Source: Candidatus Saccharimonadota bacterium (GTDB lineage Bacteria > Patescibacteriota > Saccharimonadia > Saccharimonadales > Saccharimonadaceae). From it: a stretch of DNA of 32,000 bases. Below are positions 2,851 to 29,009 of this stretch, piece after piece. The DNA is taken from positions 30,001 through 62,000 of the forward strand of contig MKSO01000001.1 in NCBI GenBank assembly GCA_001897305.1, given 5' to 3'. The notes below the pieces were generated by a model that was not told the DNA's origin, did not search any database, and saw nothing but the letters and a program-made list of their open reading frames with translations. Position 1 is the stretch's first letter. Each line of letters starts with the position of its first letter. The position numbers and the translations under genes are program-made.

Positions 2851-2856
2851 GGTATT

Positions 2857-2865
2857 AGAATAACA
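2857..2865 (-). promoter_or_regulatory. Extended -10 element TGtTATTCT, 6 nt upstream of ATG 2850 (leaderless-type promoter)
   Basis: Minus strand reads TGTTATTCT-aatacc-ATG. Confidence 0.45.
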
Positions 2866-2885
2866 TTCTCTCTAGAAGTGATGTA

Positions 2886-2915
2886 GCCCCCATCGCCGAA
2901 ACCGGCGATGGGGGC
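2886..2915 (-). terminator. GC-only 13-bp perfect hairpin, no U-tract, 12 nt after the stop of the 63-aa gene
   Basis: GCCCCCATCGCCG-aaac-CGGCGATGGGGGC. Confidence 0.55.
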
Positions 2916-2927
2916 CTGTGCCGGGCG

Positions 2928-3119
2928 TTACCAGCCCCGGCGGCCGTGGTTGTTCTTGCCCTTGGTGTCGTGGGTCTTGCGGCTGTTGCCGCCGCTCCCC
3001 GACTGCCTCTTCGACTTCGGTGCGCCGAGGTTGGCCACCGCGTCGGTGAAGCTGTAGGGCTTGGAACCCGACTTCTTGTTCCCGTAGGGAGTGAAGTTCG
3101 GCTTTTTGTTCTGGCCCAT
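2928..3119 (-). CDS. 63-aa hyper-basic, Gly/Asn/Lys/Ser-rich, probably disordered protein encoded in a high-GC islet
   Basis: Internal ATG of track ORF 2928..3191. Hand translation: MGQNKKPNFTPYGNKKSGSKPYSFTDAVANLGAPKSKRQSGSGGNSRKTHDTKGKNNHGRRGW. 59 of 63 codons end in G or C. SD GGAAGGA lies 10 nt upstream and a hairpin lies downstream. The competing overlapping frames lack this GC3 signal. Confidence 0.6.
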   Translation of the reverse strand: MGQNKKPNFTPYGNKKSGSKPYSFTDAVANLGAPKSKRQSGSGGNSRKTHDTKGKNNHGRRGW

Positions 3120-3272
3120 TTTGGCCACATCCTTCCGGAAGGCAACAAATGGTGTTGCAACCACCTCTCGGCAAGAGCCTCGATTAAACAAATAATAGCA
3201 TCTATTGGAAATAAGTCAATATGGGCAGTTTACACACAAGAACATAACCTCATAATTACCTAGAAAACAAAC

Positions 3273-3301
3273 TTGCATTCTCTTTAAAAAGCTTGTACGC
3301 T
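3273..3301 (+). promoter_or_regulatory. Possible promoter of the pilin-like operon (TTGCAT-17 nt-TACGCT), 9 nt before ATG 3311
   Basis: Hexamers and spacing read directly from the sequence. The -10 is weak and alternative -10 choices exist. Confidence 0.3.
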
Positions 3302-3310
3302 ATAGACAAT

Positions 3311-3712
3311 ATGAAGATAAAACAAACAATACAGAACATTGCTGTGGTGGTAGGTATCTTATTGTTGCCGATTGTTACGGTTTTACCGACTACACCAACA
3401 CAGGCTGCGACTTGTGGGGGTGTACAGACGGCTATTATTAGTTGTGGCGGGAGTAAGGATGCGAAGAAGGCTGAAGATACTGGTCTTTGGGGTATTCTTC
3501 TTCTTGTTATAGGTATTCTGACTGCCGGCGTTGGTGTCCTAGCCCTCGCTGGTATCGTATACGGTGCTATCCTCTGGACTTCAGCCGGCGGTAGCCCCGA
3601 GCAAATTAAAAAGGCCCGTACAGTATTTACTAACGTAGTTATTGGGGTGGTAGCCTTTGGTGGTATGTACGTACTGCTTAATTTCCTGGTTCCAGGAGGG
3701 GTATTTAACTAG
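3311..3712 (+). CDS. VirB2/TrbC-like 'T4SS-pilin' family small membrane protein (paralogue 1)
   Basis: Start moved to ATG 3311 (MKIKQTIQNIAVVV...). Signal peptide ending TQAA. Cys pair TCGGVQTAIISCGG. Two TM helices flank the loop WTSAGGSPEQIKKART. Confidence 0.7.
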   Translation: MKIKQTIQNIAVVVGILLLPIVTVLPTTPTQAATCGGVQTAIISCGGSKDAKKAEDTGLWGILLLVIGILTAGVGVLALAGIVYGAILWTSAGGSPEQIKKARTVFTNVVIGVVAFGGMYVLLNFLVPGGVFN

Positions 3713-3713
3713 T

Positions 3714-4154
3714 ATGAAGAAGATCTTTCAGACCCTACTGACAGGCGGTTTGTTTATTTTCGCTATTGCGGCACCTGTTATGGCCCTTACAACACCACAA
3801 ACAGCCAGTGCTGCTGTAACTAACTGTGAAGCACGTTTCATGGGTGTTCCACCGTGGTATCGTGGGCTTACTAAAGAAAATCCTCCGACTTGTGACCTTA
3901 AAACTCCTGACGAAGTGGGTGGTATTGGTAATTACATTTGGAAGATCGTTCTTAATGGCATAGAAATGGCGATCGTTATTTCCGCTTACATTGCAGTCTT
4001 CTTTATAATGTACGGCGGTTTCTTGTTTATAACTGGTGGTGATAAGCCGGCCCAGGTAGAAAAGGCTCGCAAGACAATCCTCGATGCTGTCATTGGGTTG
4101 GTTATTGCCATGGCTGCGGTCGCGATTATTAACTTAATCTTTAGGATTATCTAG
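3714..4154 (+). CDS. VirB2/TrbC-like 'T4SS-pilin' family small membrane protein (paralogue 2, divergent subtype)
   Basis: ATG 3714 preceded by AGGAGG. Signal peptide ...ASAA. Cys pair NCEARFMGVPPWYRGL...TCD. Two TM helices flank FITGGDKPAQVEKARKT. Confidence 0.7.
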   Translation: MKKIFQTLLTGGLFIFAIAAPVMALTTPQTASAAVTNCEARFMGVPPWYRGLTKENPPTCDLKTPDEVGGIGNYIWKIVLNGIEMAIVISAYIAVFFIMYGGFLFITGGDKPAQVEKARKTILDAVIGLVIAMAAVAIINLIFRII

Positions 4155-4157
4155 CAT

Positions 4158-4448
4158 ATGAAACAGTTTTTCATTCAGTTTGCGCAAAAAGTTGATGCTG
4201 GGAGCGTAGGTATTCCAACCGGTTCTGGCGACACACTTCTTCATAATGGGTTGAATCTGGTATATTTTTTAGCAGGTCTGGTGTCTGTTATTGTTATTAT
4301 CGTCGCGGGCATTATGTATACCACTTCAAGTGGCGACGCTAGTAGGGTTACTCGTGCGAAGAACCTGCTCACCTACTCTATTGTTGGGTTAGTGGTGGTA
4401 CTGTCGGCGTTTGTTATTACTAATTTCGTTATAGGGAGTTTTAAGTAA
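4158..4448 (+). CDS. VirB2/TrbC-like pilin-family protein lacking signal peptide and Cys pair (paralogue 3)
   Basis: 96 aa. The core YTTSSGDASRVTRAKNLLTYSIVGL is nearly identical to paralogue 4, but the N-terminus MKQFFIQFAQKVDAGS is not hydrophobic. Confidence 0.65.
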   Translation: MKQFFIQFAQKVDAGSVGIPTGSGDTLLHNGLNLVYFLAGLVSVIVIIVAGIMYTTSSGDASRVTRAKNLLTYSIVGLVVVLSAFVITNFVIGSFK

Positions 4449-4829
4449 ATGAATAAAATAAAAGTAGCTCTTGTAGCCTTTGCGATGATTGTATTTGGTG
4501 GGGCGGCGTTGCTTCCAGTAACTACTGTAGGCGCATTAGACCCTCTCGCGGGTGCCTGTGCTAGTGACCCTAATGCAGAGATATGTAAAGCAAGTGGAAA
4601 GGCCGATAAACCAGATACGCTTATTAAAACACTTGTTAACACCTTACTATTCGTTGTTGGCTTGTTGTCGGTGGTGATGATTATTTTTGCAGGTATTTTA
4701 TATACCACCTCGGCTGGTGATGCCAGTAAGGTGACGCGTGCAAAGAACACCCTTACTTATTCAATTGTAGGACTGTTATTGGCGTTTCTCGCATTTGCAA
4801 TTGTTAACTGGGTGCTTAAATTGTTTTAA
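4449..4829 (+). CDS. VirB2/TrbC-like 'T4SS-pilin' family small membrane protein (paralogue 4)
   Basis: Starts on the nucleotide after the stop of paralogue 3. Signal peptide present. Cys pair ACASDPNAEIC. Core YTTSAGDASKVTRAKNTLTYSIVGL. Confidence 0.7.
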   Translation: MNKIKVALVAFAMIVFGGAALLPVTTVGALDPLAGACASDPNAEICKASGKADKPDTLIKTLVNTLLFVVGLLSVVMIIFAGILYTTSAGDASKVTRAKNTLTYSIVGLLLAFLAFAIVNWVLKLF

Positions 4830-4902
4830 TAAAGTTGTCCCAGGGGTTAACAAAACGTTAAAAATCTGCTATAACTAACCTAGATTTCAAAGAAAGGAAT
4901 AA

Positions 4903-5322
4903 ATGAAAATGAAATTATTAACGAAAAAGAAGCTGACACTATTTGTAGCTGCCTTTGCTTTAGCGGTAACAGCACTATTTGTACCAGTAGTGACAGCTAA
5001 TGCTGCATGTGATCAAAATGACCTTAGCGCACAAAGTGGTATCGACTGTGCTCAAGGTAAAGGCACCCCAACTACCCTATTTGGTGCTGGTTCAATCTTT
5101 ACTACAGTAGTAAACGTACTCCTCTTCATTATTGGTGCGATCTGTGTGATCATGCTTATCTGGGGCGGTATTCGTTACACTACTTCTGCTGGTAACTCGG
5201 CAAACGTTACAGCTGCTAAGAACACCATTATGTACGCAATCATCGGTTTGGTGATCGCCTTCCTAGCCTTCGCGATCGTGAATTGGGTACTTGGTGCAAT
5301 TACACCTTCTGGTACTGCGTAA
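4903..5322 (+). CDS. VirB2/TrbC-like 'T4SS-pilin' family small membrane protein (paralogue 5)
   Basis: Own promoter TGcTATAAC (4867-4875) and SD AAAGGAA. Signal peptide ...TANAA. Cys pair ACDQNDLSAQSGIDC. Core RYTTSAGNSANVTAAKNTIMYAIIGL. Confidence 0.75.
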   Translation: MKMKLLTKKKLTLFVAAFALAVTALFVPVVTANAACDQNDLSAQSGIDCAQGKGTPTTLFGAGSIFTTVVNVLLFIIGAICVIMLIWGGIRYTTSAGNSANVTAAKNTIMYAIIGLVIAFLAFAIVNWVLGAITPSGTA

Positions 5323-5340
5323 GACGAAGCCTTTCTTTAT

Positions 5341-5369
5341 AAAAACCTCGCTTGCTATGCGAGGTTTTT
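5341..5369 (+). terminator. Intrinsic terminator after pilin paralogue 5
   Basis: AAAAACCTCGC-ttgctat-GCGAGGTTTTT followed by ATTTTG. Confidence 0.7.
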
Positions 5370-5388
5370 ATTTTGTCTACTGGTTGTG

Positions 5389-5415
5389 TGCCAATTAAAA
5401 AACACCCCCACGGCG
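5389..5415 (-). terminator. Intrinsic terminator after hsp20
   Basis: AAAACACCC-ccacggcga-GGGTGTTTT. On the minus strand it is followed by TTTTAATT. Confidence 0.6.
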
Positions 5416-5442
5416 AGGGTGTTTTAAAGGTTGCTCAAGATA

Positions 5443-5907
5443 CTATTGAATTTGAATCTTCTTAGCTTGCTCTTGCTTGATCTTATTGAAGCTGATGGTA
5501 AGAACACCGTCCTTTAGTACTGCTTCAACTTCGTCTTCCTTAACGCTTACAGGTAGTGCAAGTGTACGGCTGAATTCACCCCAGTAACATTCTTGGATGT
5601 GCCAGTTGGTTGCAGCACTGTCGTCACCGCTACTTAGCGTACCGCTGATAGTAAGAATACCGTCGCTAATGCTAACGTCGAGATCTTCTTTGTTTACGCC
5701 TGCTGTACGAGCCTTTACGACAAGCTTGTCGTCAGTTTCGTATACGTCAACAGCGAGTTGACCCAAGAATTCTTCTTGGCTGTCGTCCCAGCTGTCGTCG
5801 CTCGCAGGTGCGACTGTGTCGGTTGGTGTCGTTAGGTCGTCGTCGCTCAGGAAAGCTGCTGCCAGCTCGTCTTCAATGAGCAAATCCTCGTTTGGTTTTC
5901 GGGCCAT
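5443..5907 (-). CDS. Small heat-shock protein, Hsp20/alpha-crystallin family
   Basis: Alpha-crystallin-type C-terminal half (LAVDVYETDDKLVVKARTAGV...DGILTISG...FSRTLALP...AVLKDGVLTISFNK). ATG 5907 preceded by GGAGGA. The track start at 5919 is a GTG inside the SD. Confidence 0.85.
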   Translation of the reverse strand: MARKPNEDLLIEDELAAAFLSDDDLTTPTDTVAPASDDSWDDSQEEFLGQLAVDVYETDDKLVVKARTAGVNKEDLDVSISDGILTISGTLSSGDDSAATNWHIQECYWGEFSRTLALPVSVKEDEVEAVLKDGVLTISFNKIKQEQAKKIQIQ

Positions 5908-5954
5908 GATATCCTCCACTTTTCTCTAGGCTCATTTGACAAATAGTCCTTCGT

Positions 5955-5980
5955 ATTATACCGAGCATGTACGGTATAAT
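5955..5980. promoter_or_regulatory. Divergent hsp20/comF promoter core: 9-bp inverted repeat ATTATACCG-N8-CGGTATAAT, each arm supplying a TATAAT -10 box
   Basis: Plus TATAAT (5975-5980) lies 7 nt before ATG 5988. Minus TATAAT (5955-5960) has TTGATT 17 nt upstream. Confidence 0.5.
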
Positions 5981-5987
5981 CAACTAA

Positions 5988-6677
5988 ATGGGTGGTAAAA
6001 ACGTAAAAAATACAATAGTTGAGCGGGTTCTGCAAATAGTGGCCCCACACCTCTGTTTTGGATGCGGTAAAATAGGTGCTGTTTTATGCCATGATTGTAA
6101 ATATAACATCATTGACGAGCCGTTTTGGGGCTGTATTGTGTGCGGAAAGCCCAAAAGAGAGGGTGTTTGCACCGAACATGAAACTTCTATAGAGAAAACC
6201 TTTGTTGTAAGCCAGCGTATAGGCACCTTAGAAACACTTATTAATGGTTTAAAGTTTCACAATAATAAAGCCGCTGCGCAAGCCTGTGCTGAACTACTTC
6301 ATGAGTCACTTCCTATACTCCCCTCTAGTGCAACGATTGTTGTGGTACCGACGGTTCGTTCACACATACGGCAGCGTGGCTATGATCATATAGACTTAAT
6401 TGCCCGCCAATTTGCCGCTATGAGGGGCTTACCTATAAGATACTTGCTTAGGCGCGCTACAACTGACGTGCAGCATCTTGTTGGGCGTGAAGAGCGTCGT
6501 ACGCAAGCAGATAGAGCTTTTGAACTTGTCGAGACTGACGATTTGTCTATGGGTCCTATTCTTTTGATTGACGATATTATCACGACTGCTGCAACAGTAA
6601 CGGCTGCATCTAAACTGCTCTCACAAACGGGGCTACCTGTATGGGTGGCGGCTTTAGCGTACCAACCTCTCGACTGA
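5988..6677 (+). CDS. comFC: ComF-family phosphoribosyltransferase-domain protein
   Basis: N-terminal Cys clusters CFGCG...CHDC and CIVCGKP. C-terminal PRPP-binding loop LLIDDIITTAATV. Confidence 0.75.
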   Translation: MGGKNVKNTIVERVLQIVAPHLCFGCGKIGAVLCHDCKYNIIDEPFWGCIVCGKPKREGVCTEHETSIEKTFVVSQRIGTLETLINGLKFHNNKAAAQACAELLHESLPILPSSATIVVVPTVRSHIRQRGYDHIDLIARQFAAMRGLPIRYLLRRATTDVQHLVGREERRTQADRAFELVETDDLSMGPILLIDDIITTAATVTAASKLLSQTGLPVWVAALAYQPLD

Positions 6678-6715
6678 ATCGTTTCAATCTGTTAAAATAA
6701 CCCAAGTACTTTCCT

Positions 6716-6803
<88 letters not shown>

Positions 6804-6813
6804 AGAAGTTATA

Positions 6814-6839
6814 AAAATAGCCCCTACGAGGGCTATTTT
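6814..6839. terminator. Bidirectional hairpin between tRNA-Ser(TGA) and pilin paralogue 6
   Basis: AAAATAGCCC-ctacga-GGGCTATTTT, with A/T runs on both sides. Confidence 0.65.
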
Positions 6840-6841
6840 AT

Positions 6842-7246
6842 TTAGACGTTTGTAAACCCAGCGCCACCGCCAGGGGTAATAGCACCAAGTACCCAGTTAA
6901 CGATTGCGAATGCCAAGAAGGCAATAATAAGGCCAACAATGGCATAAAGAATGGTATTCTTGGCTGCCGTAACGTTAGAGGCATTACCGCCAGAAGTAGC
7001 ATAACGAATACCCCCGATGATAATCATAATAACCGCAAGCGCACCCGCTACAAAGAGTAGTGTATTGGTGATAGTGGTAATAACACCACTTCCGCCAAAG
7101 AGTGTACTAGGGGTGCCGTTCCCACGTGCCGCTTCAACACCTTGTTGTATGGCGCTTTGGGCCGAGGTGTTAGCGGAAAAACCCACCGTAAGCAGAGTGG
7201 CGAGTGATAGGGCTGAAATAGTGAAATAAGAAATAATTTTTTTCAT
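6842..7246 (-). CDS. VirB2/TrbC-like 'T4SS-pilin' family small membrane protein (paralogue 6, closest to paralogue 5)
   Basis: Signal peptide present. Core RYATSGGNASNVTAAKNTILYAIVGLIIAFLAFAIVNWVLGAITPGG. No Cys pair. Promoter TGcTATAAT on the minus strand at 7272-7280. Confidence 0.75.
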   Translation of the reverse strand: MKKIISYFTISALSLATLLTVGFSANTSAQSAIQQGVEAARGNGTPSTLFGGSGVITTITNTLLFVAGALAVIMIIIGGIRYATSGGNASNVTAAKNTILYAIVGLIIAFLAFAIVNWVLGAITPGGGAGFTNV

Positions 7247-7443: not shown

Positions 7444-7536
7444 GGAGGAGTACCCAAGTGGCTGAAGGGGACGGTTTGCTAAATCGTTAGTCTGGGGAGA
7501 CCCGGAGCCGGAGTTCGAATCTCCGCTCCTCCGCCA
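7444..7536 (+). tRNA. tRNA-Ser (anticodon GCT), CCA encoded
   Basis: Acceptor GGAGGAG/CTCCTCC, anticodon stem ACGGT/ATCGT with loop TTGCTAA, long variable arm, T-loop GTTCGAATC. Confidence 0.9.
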
Positions 7537-7583: not shown

Positions 7584-8132
7584 ATGACAAATTTCAATGC
7601 GTTTCAAAATGACTACCTCAAGTCAATTATCGAGCCCTTTCTTCCAGGCGCTACGCCCCATATTACCCCTGTTAGATTTGAAGCAATAACACCTGACATC
7701 TTTGCATTTCTATTTCGAACAACAGACAAGAACGGTCAACAACATTTTTTCGTCTCGCTTGAGTACGACTATATTCAGAATATTCAAGAAGCCAGGGATA
7801 TCATCACACGATGGCATGGCTCGTTCTCAGAGTTTTGGGCGCCGGAAAGCAACCCAAAAGCGGTGACCGATCTGGCATCAGTCAGCGTGGACACCGACAA
7901 ATACTACAAAGTTATTTTTGCGAAGGTTGAACCACCTCAAGCACCAAGCTATTGGTCCGACTCTAAAGTATTACTCCCTAACGAATCTACAGATTCCATA
8001 CTTCCACTGTTTCCAGAAAATAAACAAGCTGCAATTAAAAAACAACTCGAAAAAATTCGGCACGAAAAACCGGCCGCGGTTATATCTATTTACTTAGATA
8101 ATTACGGTCTTGAACATTTCTACTATCAATAG
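7584..8132 (+). CDS. Hypothetical cytoplasmic protein
   Basis: 182-aa ORF bounded by a promoter and a terminator. No motif recognised. Confidence 0.7.
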   Translation: MTNFNAFQNDYLKSIIEPFLPGATPHITPVRFEAITPDIFAFLFRTTDKNGQQHFFVSLEYDYIQNIQEARDIITRWHGSFSEFWAPESNPKAVTDLASVSVDTDKYYKVIFAKVEPPQAPSYWSDSKVLLPNESTDSILPLFPENKQAAIKKQLEKIRHEKPAAVISIYLDNYGLEHFYYQ

Positions 8133-10407: not shown

Positions 10408-10495
10408 GGAGAGGTGCAGGAGTGGTTGAACTGGCCGCTCTCGAAAAGCGGTAAGGCGCAAGCCTTCGAGGGTTCGAATCCCTCTCTCTCCGCCA
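10408..10495 (+). tRNA. tRNA-Ser (anticodon CGA), CCA encoded
   Basis: Acceptor GGAGAGG, anticodon stem CCGCT/AGCGG with loop CTCGAAA, long variable arm, T-arm GAGGG-TTCGAAT-CCCTC. TGcTATAAT lies at 10389-10397. Confidence 0.9.
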
Positions 10496-25264: not shown

Positions 25265-25356
25265 GGAGGAGTGGCCGAGTGGTTGAAGGCGCACGCTTGG
25301 AAAGCGTGTGTATGCAGCAATGTGTACCGTGAGTTCGAATCTCATCTCCTCCGCCA
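25265..25356 (+). tRNA. tRNA-Ser (anticodon GGA), CCA encoded
   Basis: Acceptor GGAGGAG/CTCCTCC, anticodon stem CACGC/GCGTG with loop TTGGAAA, long variable arm, T-loop TTCGAAT. Confidence 0.9.
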
Positions 25357-25369
25357 AGACAGTATTTTA

Positions 25370-25394
25370 ACAGTCGGAACATCCGACTGTTTTT
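25370..25394 (+). terminator. Intrinsic terminator after tRNA-Ser(GGA)
   Basis: ACAGTCGGA-aca-TCCGACTGT followed by TTTT. Confidence 0.7.
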
Positions 25395-25432: not shown

Positions 25433-25441
25433 TGGTATGCT
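25433..25441 (+). promoter_or_regulatory. Extended -10 TGgTATGCT, 6 nt before ATG 25448 (leaderless-type)
   Basis: TGGTATGCT-tggcct-ATG. No SD. Confidence 0.5.
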
Positions 25442-25447
25442 TGGCCT

Positions 25448-27892
25448 ATGGTTAAGAACTGGAAAAGCGGCTTTACGCTGGTTGAAGTTATTATAGTTAT
25501 TGTCATTATTGGTATCCTTGCTACGATTTCAGCCCTAGGGATTAATAGCTTTCTTGCGCAATCTCGTGATGGAAAGCGTCTTGCAAGTGTTACTACAATT
25601 AGCGAGGGCCTTGAAAAGTACTTTAACCAAAATGGTGAGTACCCAAGTTGTTCAGTTTTATCAACAAACGCCGCGGCTATATTTGGTGATATTAGTAGTG
25701 ATGCCTTAGCTGCGCCACGCGACACTGCAACTAACTCCCTAGACTGCAGCACGCTCACCTTGACTGGGCGCGACTTTTACCAGTACCAGGGTGACGGAAG
25801 TGTTACGTGCCAAGAAGGTTTGGCGTGTCTTACGTACAAGTTGCTATATCGAAGCGAGTCGGAAAAAAAGTTAGTTGAAATTAACAGTCGTCGAAGCGTT
25901 TCTATCTCAACGTCGGGCATTCCTGATATTTCGGCAAGGGGCACGAGCTTTGATAAAATTACGGCTGGTTGGAATGCGGTCCTGAATGCGACGGGGTATA
26001 CGCTTCAGGTTTCAAAAAATGCCTCTTTTACTAACATCGTAGAAACAAAATCTATTCAAGCGTATTCTTGGGTGGCAAGCGGGCTTTCGTATGACACGAC
26101 ATACTATTTCCGAGTTCGGGCAGAATCAGCAACGGGTAGCGGGCAGTGGTCGGCTACTGCAACCGCTGACACAAAAGCACTTACTCAACCAACGGGCTTA
26201 GTGGCGAACGCACAGAGCTTTACGCAAATAAATACCTCGTGGAATGCTGTGTCGGGTGCGACGGGATATCAGCTTCAAGTGGCGAAAAACGCAGCGTTTA
26301 GCGATAGTTTACAAACACTTACCTCTACGGGTACTTCTACAAACGTAACTGCGCTTTCGTACAATACCGCTTACTACTTTAGGGTGAGGGCTACGTGGAT
26401 TAGTAATACTGGCCCATGGTCGAGTGTTATTAGTGAGGTAACAAATTCACTAGCTGCTCCTCAGTCGCTTATGGCAAGCGCCGATAGTAAGACGCAAGCG
26501 ACCGCTACGTGGAAGGCGGTAACTGGCGCTACTAGCTACCAGCTCGATAGGTCAACCACGAATACATTTACTTCAGGGACGACTACTTCTATAACAGACA
26601 TCACTTCTGTTTCTCGTGCTATTACGGGATTGTCCCCTGGTGTCACGTACTATTTACGCGTTAAGGCTGTGTGGAGTGGTAACAGTAGCTCGTGGTCTAA
26701 TGTAGCAAACGTTACAACATATCCGGCTAATCCAACCAACGTTGCTTTGACGGCGTCTATGAGTGGTACAAATGCCGTTGGGCAAGCTAGTGCCGATTGC
26801 TCCGTTGGGCAAGTACGCTATCAATTTAGTACGATGAGCACAAACACCTCTACTGATGGTACTTACGCCACTGGGAGTTGGACGGCCGCTGATACAAGTA
26901 CAAAACCTGCCTCTCAAGGCTATAAATATGGTTTTAAAGTCTCAGCAAAATGTGTGGATGGCTCACGGGAGAGTGACGAAGTAGCGGTAGGCCCTAAGAC
27001 GACGGTACGGCCAATTAATGCGCCTGGGAAGCCAACCATTTCTAAGTCTGCATCTGGAACCCATGGTGCAGCCGATACTGTAACGTGGTCGTGGGCTTCG
27101 AGTTGTCCTAGCGGAACATCTACGAAATATTCTAGTGCATACTACCGCGACGACAGTACTGGATGGAGGGGTTGGACTGATAAGGGCACGGCGACCTCGC
27201 AAGCCCAAACAACAGCACTTCAGGGGTGGCAGTATGCCGTTAAGGCGAAGCTTACGTGTTTCACACCGTACGACACATCCGATAGCCCCGAAAGTGACTC
27301 CGTAAGCTATATACGAGACGTGGACCGACCTGCTAAACCAACTGGCTTTCATGTAGAGCGCAAGGATATGGGTCGCTACGATTCTGGTATGGCTTACTGG
27401 GACGGTGTTCCTACGTGTGGTACTGGGCTTAAGCGAGTGTTCCGGACATATAATCAGAATGCGCATATTATTGACAATGCCGGTGTTGGTCAAGCAAGCG
27501 CGGGCGCCTTCACGATTTGGATATTCATGACCGATGCATCAACCCCAAGAGATGAGAGTTTGTTTATTGGTGCTGATGGCGCGATGCGTCAGTCGTATAT
27601 GTGGAAAACAGCCTGGGAGGACAAGCTTCAATCAGTGTATCGTGGTGGCTATGATAATTTTAATCCATCGAGTTGGGAGCGCTCTAACCCGACTACAGAA
27701 GGCAATACAGCATGGCTTGACTGGGCCCCTTCGGCGAGTTCGCGTGCTTGGATTGTTGATACACCATCCGCGTCATATGGGGAGTCTCACCTTAAACAAC
27801 TTCGTGTCTATATTCGCTATGCCTGCTACAACGATACGACGAAACGCTATGCTGGCGGAGAACCAGGTATGAGTATTTATCAGTACTTCTAA
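25448..27892 (+). CDS. Giant modular type IV pilin: prepilin N-terminus plus pilin head, 3 FN3 repeats, 2 Cys-bridged beta-sandwich-like modules and a Trp-rich C-terminal domain
   Basis: Class III signal MVKNWKSG|FTLVEVIIVIVIIGILATI (Gly-1, Phe+1, Glu+5). Three ~90-aa repeats share W(N/K)AV.GATGYQLQ...(L)S..T.YYFRV(R/K)A...S.WS. Confidence 0.85.
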   Translation: MVKNWKSGFTLVEVIIVIVIIGILATISALGINSFLAQSRDGKRLASVTTISEGLEKYFNQNGEYPSCSVLSTNAAAIFGDISSDALAAPRDTATNSLDCSTLTLTGRDFYQYQGDGSVTCQEGLACLTYKLLYRSESEKKLVEINSRRSVSISTSGIPDISARGTSFDKITAGWNAVLNATGYTLQVSKNASFTNIVETKSIQAYSWVASGLSYDTTYYFRVRAESATGSGQWSATATADTKALTQPTGLVANAQSFTQINTSWNAVSGATGYQLQVAKNAAFSDSLQTLTSTGTSTNVTALSYNTAYYFRVRATWISNTGPWSSVISEVTNSLAAPQSLMASADSKTQATATWKAVTGATSYQLDRSTTNTFTSGTTTSITDITSVSRAITGLSPGVTYYLRVKAVWSGNSSSWSNVANVTTYPANPTNVALTASMSGTNAVGQASADCSVGQVRYQFSTMSTNTSTDGTYATGSWTAADTSTKPASQGYKYGFKVSAKCVDGSRESDEVAVGPKTTVRPINAPGKPTISKSASGTHGAADTVTWSWASSCPSGTSTKYSSAYYRDDSTGWRGWTDKGTATSQAQTTALQGWQYAVKAKLTCFTPYDTSDSPESDSVSYIRDVDRPAKPTGFHVERKDMGRYDSGMAYWDGVPTCGTGLKRVFRTYNQNAHIIDNAGVGQASAGAFTIWIFMTDASTPRDESLFIGADGAMRQSYMWKTAWEDKLQSVYRGGYDNFNPSSWERSNPTTEGNTAWLDWAPSASSRAWIVDTPSASYGESHLKQLRVYIRYACYNDTTKRYAGGEPGMSIYQYF
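25916..26719 (+). repeat. Three tandem FN3-like coding repeats (aa 157-424 of the pilin)
   Basis: Repeat cores: ITAGWNAVLNATGYTLQVSK...YYFRVRAESATGSGQWS; INTSWNAVSGATGYQLQVAK...YYFRVRATWISNTGPWS; ATATWKAVTGATSYQLDRST...YYLRVKAVWSGNSSSWS. The DNA copies are well diverged. Confidence 0.8.
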
Positions 27893-27898
27893 AAAGGA

Positions 27899-28315
27899 AT
27901 GCATATGAGTAAAAAGAAAGTCATATATATCATTGGAAGTATCGTCGGGGTTATCCTGCTTGTTGGTATCGGCTTTATAGCAGTCTCGCTGTATAAAACG
28001 CATAATACCCAGGACGGTAATGGGGCGCAGCAATCTGATAACAAAAAAATCGACAGCTTGGTTCGTGAGTCGGATGACTTAATGGCGAGGGGTGATAAAG
28101 ACGGAGCGATTAACCGTCTTGAGGAGGCCCAGAAGGTAACGAAAGAGTCGGGCGACAAAGATAAGCAGTGGGACATAGAGGTGCGTCTAGACTATGCTAA
28201 GAACACCGATGTGCCTGCCATAGACATGCCAAAAGGTGATTACGCGCCTGTGGCTACAGACCCCTCCCAGCAGGGCGCAAGAACTGATACGGAAACGCAG
28301 ATTCGTAAGGAGTAA
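27899..28315 (+). CDS. Small bitopic membrane protein, charged extracytoplasmic/helical tail
   Basis: 138-aa ORF. TM VIYIIGSIVGVILLVGIGFIAVSLY. SD-like AAAGGAA. Starts 7 nt after the pilin stop. Confidence 0.65.
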   Translation: MHMSKKKVIYIIGSIVGVILLVGIGFIAVSLYKTHNTQDGNGAQQSDNKKIDSLVRESDDLMARGDKDGAINRLEEAQKVTKESGDKDKQWDIEVRLDYAKNTDVPAIDMPKGDYAPVATDPSQQGARTDTETQIRKE

Positions 28316-28349
28316 TTTCTCGTCGGTTTATACTGCTAGCGCGGACATG

Positions 28350-28355
28350 TATAAT
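28350..28355 (+). promoter_or_regulatory. -10 box TATAAT, 7 nt before ATG 28363 (leaderless-type)
   Basis: TATAAT-agggaat-ATG. Confidence 0.4.
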
Positions 28356-28362
28356 AGGGAAT

Positions 28363-28707
28363 ATGAATAGTAAATCACGCGTACTTATAACCATCCTTAG
28401 CATTTTAATAGTAATCGGCGTTGCTGCTGCGGCCTTTTTTGTCTATAAGGGCCTCACTACAGACCCAAAGGGTGTTGAGCAAACCACTCAATCGACAAGC
28501 CCAGAAGGATCAACAAGCACGCCTACTGAAGGTACTTCAGGTGGTGCGGCAACCGAGACGACCACTACTAACTCTGATGGTAGTGTTACAACCAAAAAAT
28601 CTGACGGTAGTTCCGTAACTGTCAAAGATGCAACCAACGGGTACGAAGAGGTTACTACCGTTGATGTATCTGGTAAGTCATCCACGGTCCTTCGTCCAAA
28701 GCAATAG
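28363..28707 (+). CDS. Small bitopic membrane protein with Ser/Thr/Gly-rich ectodomain
   Basis: 114-aa ORF. TM VLITILSILIVIGVAAAAFFVY. Followed by a terminator. Confidence 0.65.
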   Translation: MNSKSRVLITILSILIVIGVAAAAFFVYKGLTTDPKGVEQTTQSTSPEGSTSTPTEGTSGGAATETTTTNSDGSVTTKKSDGSSVTVKDATNGYEEVTTVDVSGKSSTVLRPKQ

Positions 28708-28722
28708 TCGGATACACCACAT

Positions 28723-28757
28723 ATAGCGTTGTAAAAAACAAACACAACGCTATTTTT
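28723..28757 (+). terminator. Intrinsic terminator
   Basis: ATAGCGTTGT-N11-ACAACGCTAT followed by TTTT. Confidence 0.65.
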
Positions 28758-28817
28758 GTGTTTACAGAGGTGAACATAAGCAGTATGGCGATGTGGTCAA
28801 AAAAACCCGCCAAAATG

Positions 28818-28846
28818 CTTGAAAAACCACATGTAGGGGCCTATAG
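28818..28846 (+). promoter_or_regulatory. Candidate nrd promoter TTGAAA-17 nt-TATAGT
   Basis: Hexamers and 17-nt spacing read directly. It predicts a 5' UTR of about 157 nt before ATG 29010. Confidence 0.45.
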
Positions 28847-28868
28847 TCATTCTCAAGCACTACATGTC
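28826..28868 (+). promoter_or_regulatory. Two ACATGT-centred 10-bp near-palindromes (cCACATGTAG, CTACATGTcG), 33 bp centre-to-centre, flanking the -10 box
   Basis: Each is 9/10 to the perfect palindrome CTACATGTAG. Site 2 also lies within the 17-bp palindrome CACTAC-atgtc-GTAGTG (28857-28873). Confidence 0.35.
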
Positions 28869-29009
28869 GTAGTGATAACAAAACAGACATATGCAAGGGG
28901 AATAACTGTTACGCTCCGGCGGTTTTTTTCTTGCACCTCTTACCTAAAGAGAGGGTACACCTGGGGAGGTGTGAAAAACATTCAATAAAGGAGCAGGGGA
29001 AATAGGGGA

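Follow-up and report, generated by a model that had tools for sequence, protein, structure and literature searches.

Type IV pili (T4P) are core to Saccharibacteria, where they mediate host binding (PMC11623550), and they are near-universal both in this group and in the candidate phyla radiation (CPR) (PMC7739484; Troman et al. 2026 preprint). A T4P system occurs in all 55 oral TM7 genomes studied, together with clade-specific pilins (PMC7739484), and the large minor pilins PilX1 and PilX2 of TM7x carry lectin-like modules (PMC11623550). Modular pilins, in which further domains are added to a pilin module, comprise more than 1,200 proteins in 264 architectures, many of them from CPR bacteria; the fibronectin type III (FN3) domain (IPR003961) is among the 15 commonest added domains, and the proteins are predicted to be located at the pilus tip (PMC8179133). 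The stretch analyzed here—the window, 32,000 nucleotides of a Candidatus Saccharimonadota contig (MKSO01000001.1, positions 30,001 to 62,000)—encodes a protein of this kind. Its open reading frame (ORF; 25448..27892, forward strand, ATG start) specifies 814 amino acids, and we read the product, with a probability of about 0.6, as a modular type IV pilin with an exchangeable, surface-recognizing tip, encoded by an uncultivated bacterium of the Saccharimonadia (Saccharibacteria/TM7). An earlier note on the same DNA had proposed a modular pilin composed of a pilin head, a rigid-looking beta-sandwich stalk and a distinct tip, an architecture borne out below. Its statement that modular pilins are known in a few Gram-positives understates a class that is large and rich in CPR members, and the domain series, which was not known to it, belongs to pilin+FN3 architectures already cataloged by Raynaud et al. 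2021 (PMC8179133). The full-length identical protein (P0380) is also on deposit under two accessions: OJU96621.1, annotated as hypothetical protein BGO18_00290 of Candidatus Saccharibacteria bacterium 47-87, and MBN9398436.1, annotated as a fibronectin type III domain-containing protein. The pilin is an uncharacterized member of an established class and a plausible specificity adhesin. Literature searches returned no description of several features reported here: the orphan tip, the FN3-like modules with their disulfides, the series of stalks differing in copy number, the conserved bitopic partner, and alleles of one species that are mosaic at domain boundaries at a locus flanked by a tRNA gene.

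The N-terminus, MVKNWKSG followed by FTLVEVIIVIVIIGILATI, had been called a textbook prepilin sequence, and it scores 26.9 bits with Pfam N_methyl PF07963 and 29.4 bits with TIGR02532, above the respective cut-offs of 21.2 and 16.3. Cleavage by PilD is predicted between G8 and F9; across 24 heads of the family F9 (+1), T10 and E13 (+5) are invariant, and G8 (−1) is nearly so. A profile of these 24 heads aligns with solved type IVa major pilins beyond the alpha-1 helix, matching Neisseria PilE with E 6e-11 over 103 residues (PilE 1-107) and Geobacter PilA-N with E 4.5e-13. The N-terminal module thus consists of a class III signal peptide and a pilin module like those of type IVa major pilins. 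It contains four conserved cysteines (68, 100, 121 and 127) and is well kept across genera, at 40-61% identity. A full-length AlphaFold2 (AF2) model built from 33 family sequences (mean pLDDT 87.2, pTM 0.43) shows one long helix, a small alpha/beta head and a string of beta-sandwich domains; the low pTM is as expected for a flexible chain of domains. The head itself is modeled with a helix at 11-62 and strands at 111-115, 130-136 and 141-146, at pLDDT 70-90. The GAST content of the protein, 43.9%, lies in the range reported for exposed pilins (PMC11623550). Two other assignments were considered and rejected: the type II secretion pseudopilin GspG (33.7 bits against a cut-off of 88.85) and the competence pilin ComGC (18.8 against 75) are each matched by the N-terminal 20-60 residues alone.

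Behind the head, Pfam fn3 recognizes three stretches between about residues 157 and 424 (60.9 bits; cut-off 25), where three FN3-type repeats had been predicted. The repeats match one another in hhalign comparisons (E 1e-31 and 6e-27) and are modeled as beta-sandwiches with pLDDT of about 90. When the whole model is submitted to Foldseek, tandem-FN3 chains are retrieved at E 1e-22 to 1e-13, including those of titin/MyBP-C, gp130, LAR, fibronectin and GhpA, the grappling-hook protein of the predatory Aureispira. The next two segments, described at first as related modules each with a cysteine pair, are indeed related (hhalign probability 98.1%, E 7.6e-14; weakly, E 0.011, by pairwise BLASTP) and are identified here as divergent FN3 domains. 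The first of them, modA, matches the third FN3 repeat by hhalign (probability 98.0%, E 2e-13) and is modeled with pLDDT above 90, while Pfam returned no match, even at E<=10, on isolated segments past residue 425. Since modA and modB are related to FN3, the stalk consists of five FN3-type beta-sandwich domains in series, three canonical and two disulfide-bearing. At about 4 nm per domain, such a chain would form a spacer of roughly 20-25 nm. The whole protein has ten cysteines, namely the four of the head and one pair each in residues 425-525, 526-625 and 626-814. An essential FN3 protein of Southlakia, SEML1_0890 (Wang et al. 2023), was also considered; it has 195 residues and one Ig/FN3-type domain, and the comparison table gives it no link to the pilin family.

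The C-terminal tip is predicted, from an alignment of 14 sequences (residues 613-814; pLDDT 80.8, pTM 0.78), to fold as a beta-sandwich interrupted by an insertion of roughly 90 residues with two helices and a low-confidence loop. Its terminal strands and its disulfide are conserved. A profile search of 1.84 billion cluster representatives with the tip gave 12 matches at E<=1e-3, ten of them pilins with the same head family and two N-terminally truncated fragments; this disulfide-bearing domain of 200 residues is thus confined to the present pilin family. No match was obtained with Pfam (E<=10), no chain at E<=10 with the 14-sequence profile against PDB sequences, and no significant match by Foldseek with the tip model against either the PDB (best E 0.2, query-normalized TM-score <=0.31-0.33) or the viral structures of BFVD (best E 0.23, query-normalized TM-score <=0.33). 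The weak structural neighbors are FN3/Ig sandwiches. A derivation of the tip core from FN3 is unproven, an hhalign comparison with modB giving a probability of only 9.7%. The last 189 residues contain 8 Trp (not 9 in the last ~190, as first counted), 13 Tyr and the third cysteine pair, C657/C793. In tip numbering, W39 and W147 are invariant and W107 and W144 nearly so; all lie in conserved core segments and none in the variable region, so that these residues look structural. Of the two properties by which the C-terminal domain was to be judged as a recognition module, strong variation between strains was found, and a known binding fold was not matched by Foldseek. Coordinates of the modules and of the neighboring features are collected in the table.

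Table. Modules of the pilin gene and adjacent features, in window coordinates.
Feature	Coordinates	Strand	Basis
tRNA-Ser (anticodon GGA)	25265..25356	+	ARAGORN, Rfam
Terminator-like hairpin, 10-bp stem then T run, closing the tRNA unit	25369..25391	+	consensus scan and sequence
Extended -10-like box TGgTATGCT, no Shine-Dalgarno sequence	25433..25441	+	read from sequence
Class III (prepilin) leader MVKNWKSG	25448..25471	+	PF07963 and TIGR02532 above cut-offs
Pilin module, aa 9-156, alpha-1 helix and alpha/beta head	25472..25915	+	AF2 and head profile
Three FN3 domains, aa 157-245, 246-335, 336-424	25916..26719	+	Pfam, hhalign, AF2, Foldseek
modA, aa 425-525, divergent FN3-like, pair C451-C502	26720..27022	+	hhalign, AF2
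modB, aa 526-612, divergent FN3-like, pair C553-C604	27023..27283	+	hhalign
Tip domain, aa 613-814, pair C657-C793	27284..27889	+	AF2 on 14 sequences
Conserved partner gene, 136 aa (138 aa from 27899)	27905..28315	+	spacing, AAGGA, homologues next to family pilins
Second small bitopic protein, 114 aa, Thr/Ser-rich	28363..28707	+	ORF

Strains of one species carry mosaic alleles of the pilin at a single chromosomal locus. Gene order there, as seen in three other alleles, is FtsX/MacB, ABC ATPase, pilin, 138-aa protein, 114-aa protein, 67-aa ORF and the ribonucleotide reductase (RNR). Two of the contigs give a one-sided view of this order: L084 ends at its position 7702, 42 nt past the stop codon of the divergent-tip pilin allele P0002, and L093 begins just 5′ of the pilin gene. 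In the locus sequences tRNA-Ser stands directly 5′ of the pilin, an adjacency also kept in the more distant L082. L084 shares 98.6% nucleotide identity with the window over 5.2 kb of upstream flank and mostly 90-100% over the first ~1.5 kb of the gene; identity then falls at about residues 505-525 to about 70% and, within the tip, to about 50%, with a synonymous divergence (pS) of 0.84 in the tip. In L093 (allele P0381) divergence is limited to window positions 27260-27790, about residues 605-780, between flanks that are 95-100% identical, and the RNR protein is 99.9% identical to that of the window. L092 carries a 550-aa allele without canonical FN3 domains (P0394), whose head is 40%, modB 86% and tip 77% identical. 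Its upstream homology (96.8% at the nucleotide level) stops at window position 25357, one base past the 3′ end of the tRNA-Ser at 25356, and resumes at 27021, the modA/modB boundary. Across the alleles, breakpoints thus coincide with the 3′ end of the tRNA and with two domain boundaries, modA/modB and modB/tip; the start of modB recurs (27021 in L092; about residues 505-525 in L084), and the hypervariable core of the tip extends over about 27260-27790.

The strong strain-level variability that the earlier note had looked for in the C-terminal domain is thus present: tip proteins are 47-77% identical between strains, and in the two strains compared for RNR the large subunit is 99.4-99.9% identical in protein as against 66-77% for their tips. 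The corresponding pS values are 0.60-0.78 in the tip core and 0.18-0.31 in RNR. Saturated synonymous sites in the tip indicate old alleles imported by recombination and not recent divergence by point mutation. Dedicated switching mechanisms were sought as well. The 32-kb window contains no direct repeats involving the tip and, near the pilin gene, no inverted repeats, silent cassettes or template/variable repeat pairs; the neighborhood gene tables list no reverse-transcriptase family; and the differences between strains include indels in addition to the saturated synonymous sites. The absence of template/variable repeats, cassettes and inverted repeats argues against both a diversity-generating retroelement and a shufflon. 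The former was rejected for want of a repeat pair and a reverse-transcriptase family and for the indels among the differences, the latter because inverted repeats and cassette copies are missing and the downstream genes encode small membrane proteins and RNR. The L084 contig breaks off just past the pilin gene, and a number of cluster members (P0390, P0391, P0382-P0389) are fragments that stop in or near the tip, a pattern consistent with assemblies interrupted where samples contained more than one tip allele.

Across the family, which is one of Saccharimonadia and whose distribution over taxa rests on protein searches, locally built HMMs resolve the general plan head-(FN3)0-4-(modA)0-2-(modB)0-2-variable tail. 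Canonical FN3 domains are lacking in 11 head-bearing proteins, and one, two, three and four copies occur in 9, 17, 31 and 7, respectively; the specific head, at 40-60% identity, is found in about 50 among the 120 homologues listed. The same tip type occurs without canonical FN3 in proteins of about 550 residues (P0122, P0124, P0125, P0127, P0128, P0131 and P0394) and with a single FN3 in P0126, and the tails of other members are of at least three unrelated types. What varies on the constant pilin module is hence the length of the stalk and the type of tip. Two further loci deserve mention. On a 580-kb contig (JGI contig Ga0556680_000001, L090:1293-8771) a protein with RCC1 and fn3 domains (577 aa) accompanies a tandem pair of paralogous FN3 pilins, 535 and 627 aa long. 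Directly after each pilin comes a bitopic protein of 286-288 aa; these two bitopic proteins share 56% identity and show no relationship with the partner of ~135 aa described below. In Ca. Microsaccharimonas (JBASWP010000001.1, L035:9989-11704) an orphan pilin of 571 aa combines N_methyl with a seven-repeat RCC1 beta-propeller, resembling PilX2; its neighbors are a G5-domain protein on one side and MetRS on the other, and the 20 kb around it contain no T4P machinery.

The pilin had been taken to be transcribed alone, which the gene that follows it makes unlikely: this gene begins 12 nt past the pilin stop, is preceded by a Shine-Dalgarno-like AAGGA, is not separated from the pilin by a terminator, and is a conserved companion of it, so that the two are probably co-transcribed, as judged from their arrangement. 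Its product has an N-terminal transmembrane helix and a soluble domain of ~100 residues without a family match. Homologues lie directly 3′ of a family pilin in L082, at 40% identity (E 2e-25), and in L091, a marine contig, at 39% (E 2e-21), and the partner occupies the same position in L092 and L093; in L085 and L089 a more distant version (E 1e-4 to 1e-7) is found in another context, that of a CAP-domain protein, pilin, partner and L21. Partner proteins are 93.5% and 87.7% identical where the tips are 66% and 77% identical, and thus follow the flanks and not the tip. Since the downstream gene does not co-vary with the tip, interpretation of the pair as a polymorphic toxin and its immunity protein was rejected. 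A metagenome scan with the partner protein yielded one short contig with the same allele and no new alleles. Two small bitopic ORFs had been predicted downstream, and each of them, read from the sequence, does possess one N-terminal hydrophobic helix. The second, of 114 aa, is present in the same-species contigs L087, L088, L092 and L093 and absent from L082, L085 and L089; not being kept outside the species, it is not a conserved partner. It has a promoter-like TTTATA-17-TATAAT at 28327-28355, with TATAAT ending 7 nt before its ATG and no Shine-Dalgarno sequence. A further small ORF at 28758-28988 (67 aa as called in related contigs), preceded by a T-rich hairpin-like stretch at ~28735-28765, lies between the 114-aa gene and the RNR operon and is kept in L087, L092 and L093.

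Taken as a pilin, the protein would be cleaved by PilD, and its alpha-1 helix would enter a type IV pilus, in which the protein would most likely be a low-abundance minor subunit placed at the tip or sparsely along the shaft. Placement at the tip as a minor pilin would be in line with what Raynaud et al. argue for modular pilins of such bulk and would parallel the PilX1/PilX2 model of TM7x; minor-subunit status we infer from size alone. The FN3 chain would act as a spacer whose length is tuned by the number of canonical FN3 copies (0-4 across the family), and the tip domain would bind a ligand on the host bacterium or another surface. Through homologous recombination, tip and stalk modules would be swapped between lineages, changing the binding specificity and keeping the assembly module. 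The downstream bitopic protein would probably assist in handling or assembling the bulky pilin at the membrane.

Several observations weigh against this scheme. By its profile the head resembles major and not minor pilins; the tip is without a known binding fold, and its ligand binding is deduced only from position and variability; filaments first taken for T4P in another Saccharibacterium belong to a different pilus type (Troman et al. 2026 preprint); and genes for PilB, PilC, PilD and PilMNO were not found within about 52 kb, that is, in the window and 10 kb on each side, in agreement with the prediction that the gene has no pilus-assembly neighbors. When PilB was taken from L010, a related Saccharibacteria contig with a T4P-type gene row in which a PilB-type ATPase is followed by further ORFs, the best 120 matches were 72-100% identical and none lay on a contig of this organism, whose contigs measure 915,345, 1,052,536 and 1,304,966 bp. 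An orphan gene with no T4P locus over this distance would also suit a surface adhesin that is anchored and never polymerized, with the pilin-like N-terminus, processed by PilD or unprocessed, serving only as a membrane anchor that holds the tip on the cell body. The FN3 chain would then span wall and capsule, the 0-4 stalk copies would be those of a spacer matched to envelope thickness, the conserved, dedicated membrane partner may be a co-anchor, and the difficulty of fitting an appendage of 650 residues into a pilus shaft would disappear. Such an anchor is nonetheless unlikely: the head forms an entire pilin module in which E+5 and the cysteines are conserved, its 40-61% identity across genera exceeds what a transmembrane anchor needs, it matches polymerizing pilins beyond alpha-1, and orphan modular pilins are common in Saccharibacteria that do have T4P (PMC11623550; L035). 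The resemblance of the head to major type IVa pilins, together with the high GAST content and a strong-looking leaderless-type promoter conserved across the family, could alternatively be taken to mean that the protein is the major subunit of a thick, decorated filament with the heads as the T4P core and the FN3 chains radiating from it as a sheath or bristles. We know of no characterized bacterial T4P with a major pilin of such size, and replacement of the whole gene at the same locus by a 550-aa allele would alter the geometry drastically. Modular pilins are, moreover, likely to be tip-exposed according to Raynaud et al. (PMC8179133), and both filaments of TM7x have been ascribed to small pilins, PilA1 and PilA2 (PMC11623550), all of which makes a decorated filament very improbable.

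Two further explanations concern the tip and its variability. The earlier note had proposed a carbohydrate-binding module, and a module or lectin of this type directed at host cell-wall glycans would account for the 8 Trp and 13 Tyr in 189 residues; it would also accord with the inhibition of TM7x binding by sugars and with the lectin-like folds of PilX1 and PilX2 (PMC11623550). No such module was matched, however, by Pfam, by the profile against the PDB or by Foldseek against the PDB and BFVD, which leaves the aromatic composition as the only ground for the idea; the weak structural neighbors are FN3/Ig sandwiches instead, and the conserved Trp residues lie in core segments and not where the tip varies. 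A carbohydrate-binding module or lectin at the tip is accordingly doubtful. The variability, for its part, might reflect escape from phages that use the pilus tip as a receptor, from grazers or from antibodies, with the function of the tip remaining constant. Old, saturated alleles within one species fit the balancing or negative frequency-dependent selection that is typical of phage receptors and surface antigens, and T4P tips are known to serve as phage receptors, a minor pilin having been named as that of CTXphi (PMC8179133), a precedent in favor of this possibility. Neither phage nor CRISPR evidence ties to the pilin, though, and whole-module swaps that include changes in stalk length exceed what epitope escape requires. 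We regard escape as the sole cause as distinctly unlikely; it is, besides, compatible with a role of the tip in adhesion and not exclusive of it.

A broader and much more tentative extension of the modular-pilin reading is that the tRNA-Ser/pilin locus constitutes a dedicated specificity-switching hotspot of Saccharimonadia, at which co-occurring lineages trade modules at domain boundaries, possibly via natural competence, with the orphan tip as the primary host determinant and the partner as a previously unknown assembly factor for oversized pilins. If true, the locus would be a cellular counterpart of tip swapping in phage tail fibers. T4P have been implicated in host recognition by ultrasmall epibiotic CPR bacteria, and the family offers a compact candidate for the specificity determinant, since it combines a constant assembly module and an adjustable stalk with a tip that differs sharply between strains with 99.4-99.9% identical RNR. 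The domain-boundary breakpoints provide ready-made chimeras for tip swaps, the orphan tip fold is worth solving, and clues to the handling of very large pilins may come from the conserved bitopic partner. Should the protein prove to be a phage receptor or an anchored adhesin instead, the locus would still mark strain-level surface diversification in Saccharibacteria.

Upstream, the tRNA-Ser(GGA) lies 91 nt 5′ of the pilin ORF, and its 3′ end forms the left boundary of the variable segment. A leaderless-type promoter had been proposed for the pilin, and comparison supports it: in the window the -10-like box ends 6 nt before the ATG (a consensus scan did not call the site), and in most of 10 family loci a -10-like hexamer, read by eye, stands about 6-7 nt before the ATG without a Shine-Dalgarno sequence (about 9 nt in L082), the sequences upstream of the ATG being otherwise unrelated. 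The start thus appears to have leaderless-type geometry. Such starts may be widespread in this organism and no peculiarity of the pilin, as the 114-aa gene shares the layout. Four tRNA-Ser isoacceptors, UGA, GCU, CGA and GGA (6716-6803, 7444-7536, 10408-10495 and 25265-25356), occur within 19 kb, together with tRNA-Arg(GCG). The 10 kb to the left of the window (L094) contain a type IV secretion locus and not a T4P locus. Jointly with window positions 2855-7246 they make up a secretion locus of the Patescibacteria type, in which several T4SS_pilin (PF18895) paralogues fall inside the window and TrbL, PrgI, a TraC-like protein, a VirB4-like ATPase and a phage-lysozyme-domain protein lie farther left. 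A 190-nt inverted repeat there (I1; 5118-5307 / 6872-7061, 72%) overlaps the ORFs 4903-5322 (+) and 6842-7246 (-), which are probably T4SS_pilin paralogues. Proteins named Candidatus Microsaccharimonas or Saccharimonadota share 80-85% identity with the ValRS of the window. The same strain, at 100% nucleotide identity over 12.8 kb, recurs in two independent assemblies of other samples, there on contigs 915 kb and 1.05 Mb long (KANT15-1 scaffold_8 and ERZ27263092 k141_97404), and its proteins are indexed in about 93-101 blocks of a public collection, many on contigs of 0.2-1.3 Mb; this points either to an organism of unusual clonality that has been sampled widely or to a population that recurs in reactors or laboratories.

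Among described systems, the modular pilins surveyed by Raynaud et al. under IPR012902, exemplified by PilB (vWA) and PilC (lectin) of S. sanguinis, are closest in that they likewise join a pilin module to C-terminal domains unrelated to the pilus (PMC8179133). The criterion used in that survey, extra domains C-terminal to the head, applies to the protein described here with its three Pfam fn3 and two FN3-like domains, and display of an effector module via the pilus, predicted for the surveyed proteins, is predicted here too. In contrast to those pilins, the present one bears an appendage of six domains (three FN3, two disulfide-bearing FN3-like and the orphan tip) instead of one recognizable functional module, it is encoded by an orphan gene with a dedicated bitopic partner, and its own modules are exchanged between strains. 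The FN3 pilins of the survey are uncharacterized. Nanosynbacter lyticus TM7x provides further parallels: PilX1 (jelly-roll) and PilX2 (RCC1 beta-propeller) also carry large C-terminal accessory domains and have been proposed as tip adhesins, PilJ and PilK are encoded outside the T4P loci, and C-terminal regions of its pilins diversify as the machinery is conserved (Grossman et al. 2024; PMC11623550). The TM7x proteins differ in that their accessory domains are of other kinds, no FN3 stalk has been reported, and no homology to the present tip was detected (PMC11623550). In the thin pilus of R64, as cited in PMC7739484, the minor pilin PilV similarly sets recipient or host specificity through alternative C-termini on a constant N-terminal part. 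Its variants arise within one genome by site-specific inversion of silent cassettes, as opposed to the allelic replacement between strains seen here. Phage tail fibers combine a conserved assembly part with an exchanged distal specificity module, have breakpoints at domain boundaries and employ Ig/FN3-like spacers, and in these respects are analogous to the pilin. They are virion proteins and not cellular pilins, and Foldseek found no match to the tip among viral structures. Pam pili of Ca. Mycosynbacter amalyticus, finally, are CPR-specific filaments whose subunits contain beta-sandwich domains with paired cysteines, and in the larger Pam pilin about 100 additional residues make up two strands and two short helices, in loose resemblance to the predicted tip (Troman et al. 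2026 preprint). Pam subunits are described as having Sec signal peptides, donor-strand exchange and chaperone-like factors; a Pam-type pilin was considered here and rejected, as the class III signal peptide and alpha-1 helix of the present protein, which has no chaperone-like neighbors, set it apart from Pam by these descriptions and place it with type IV pilins.

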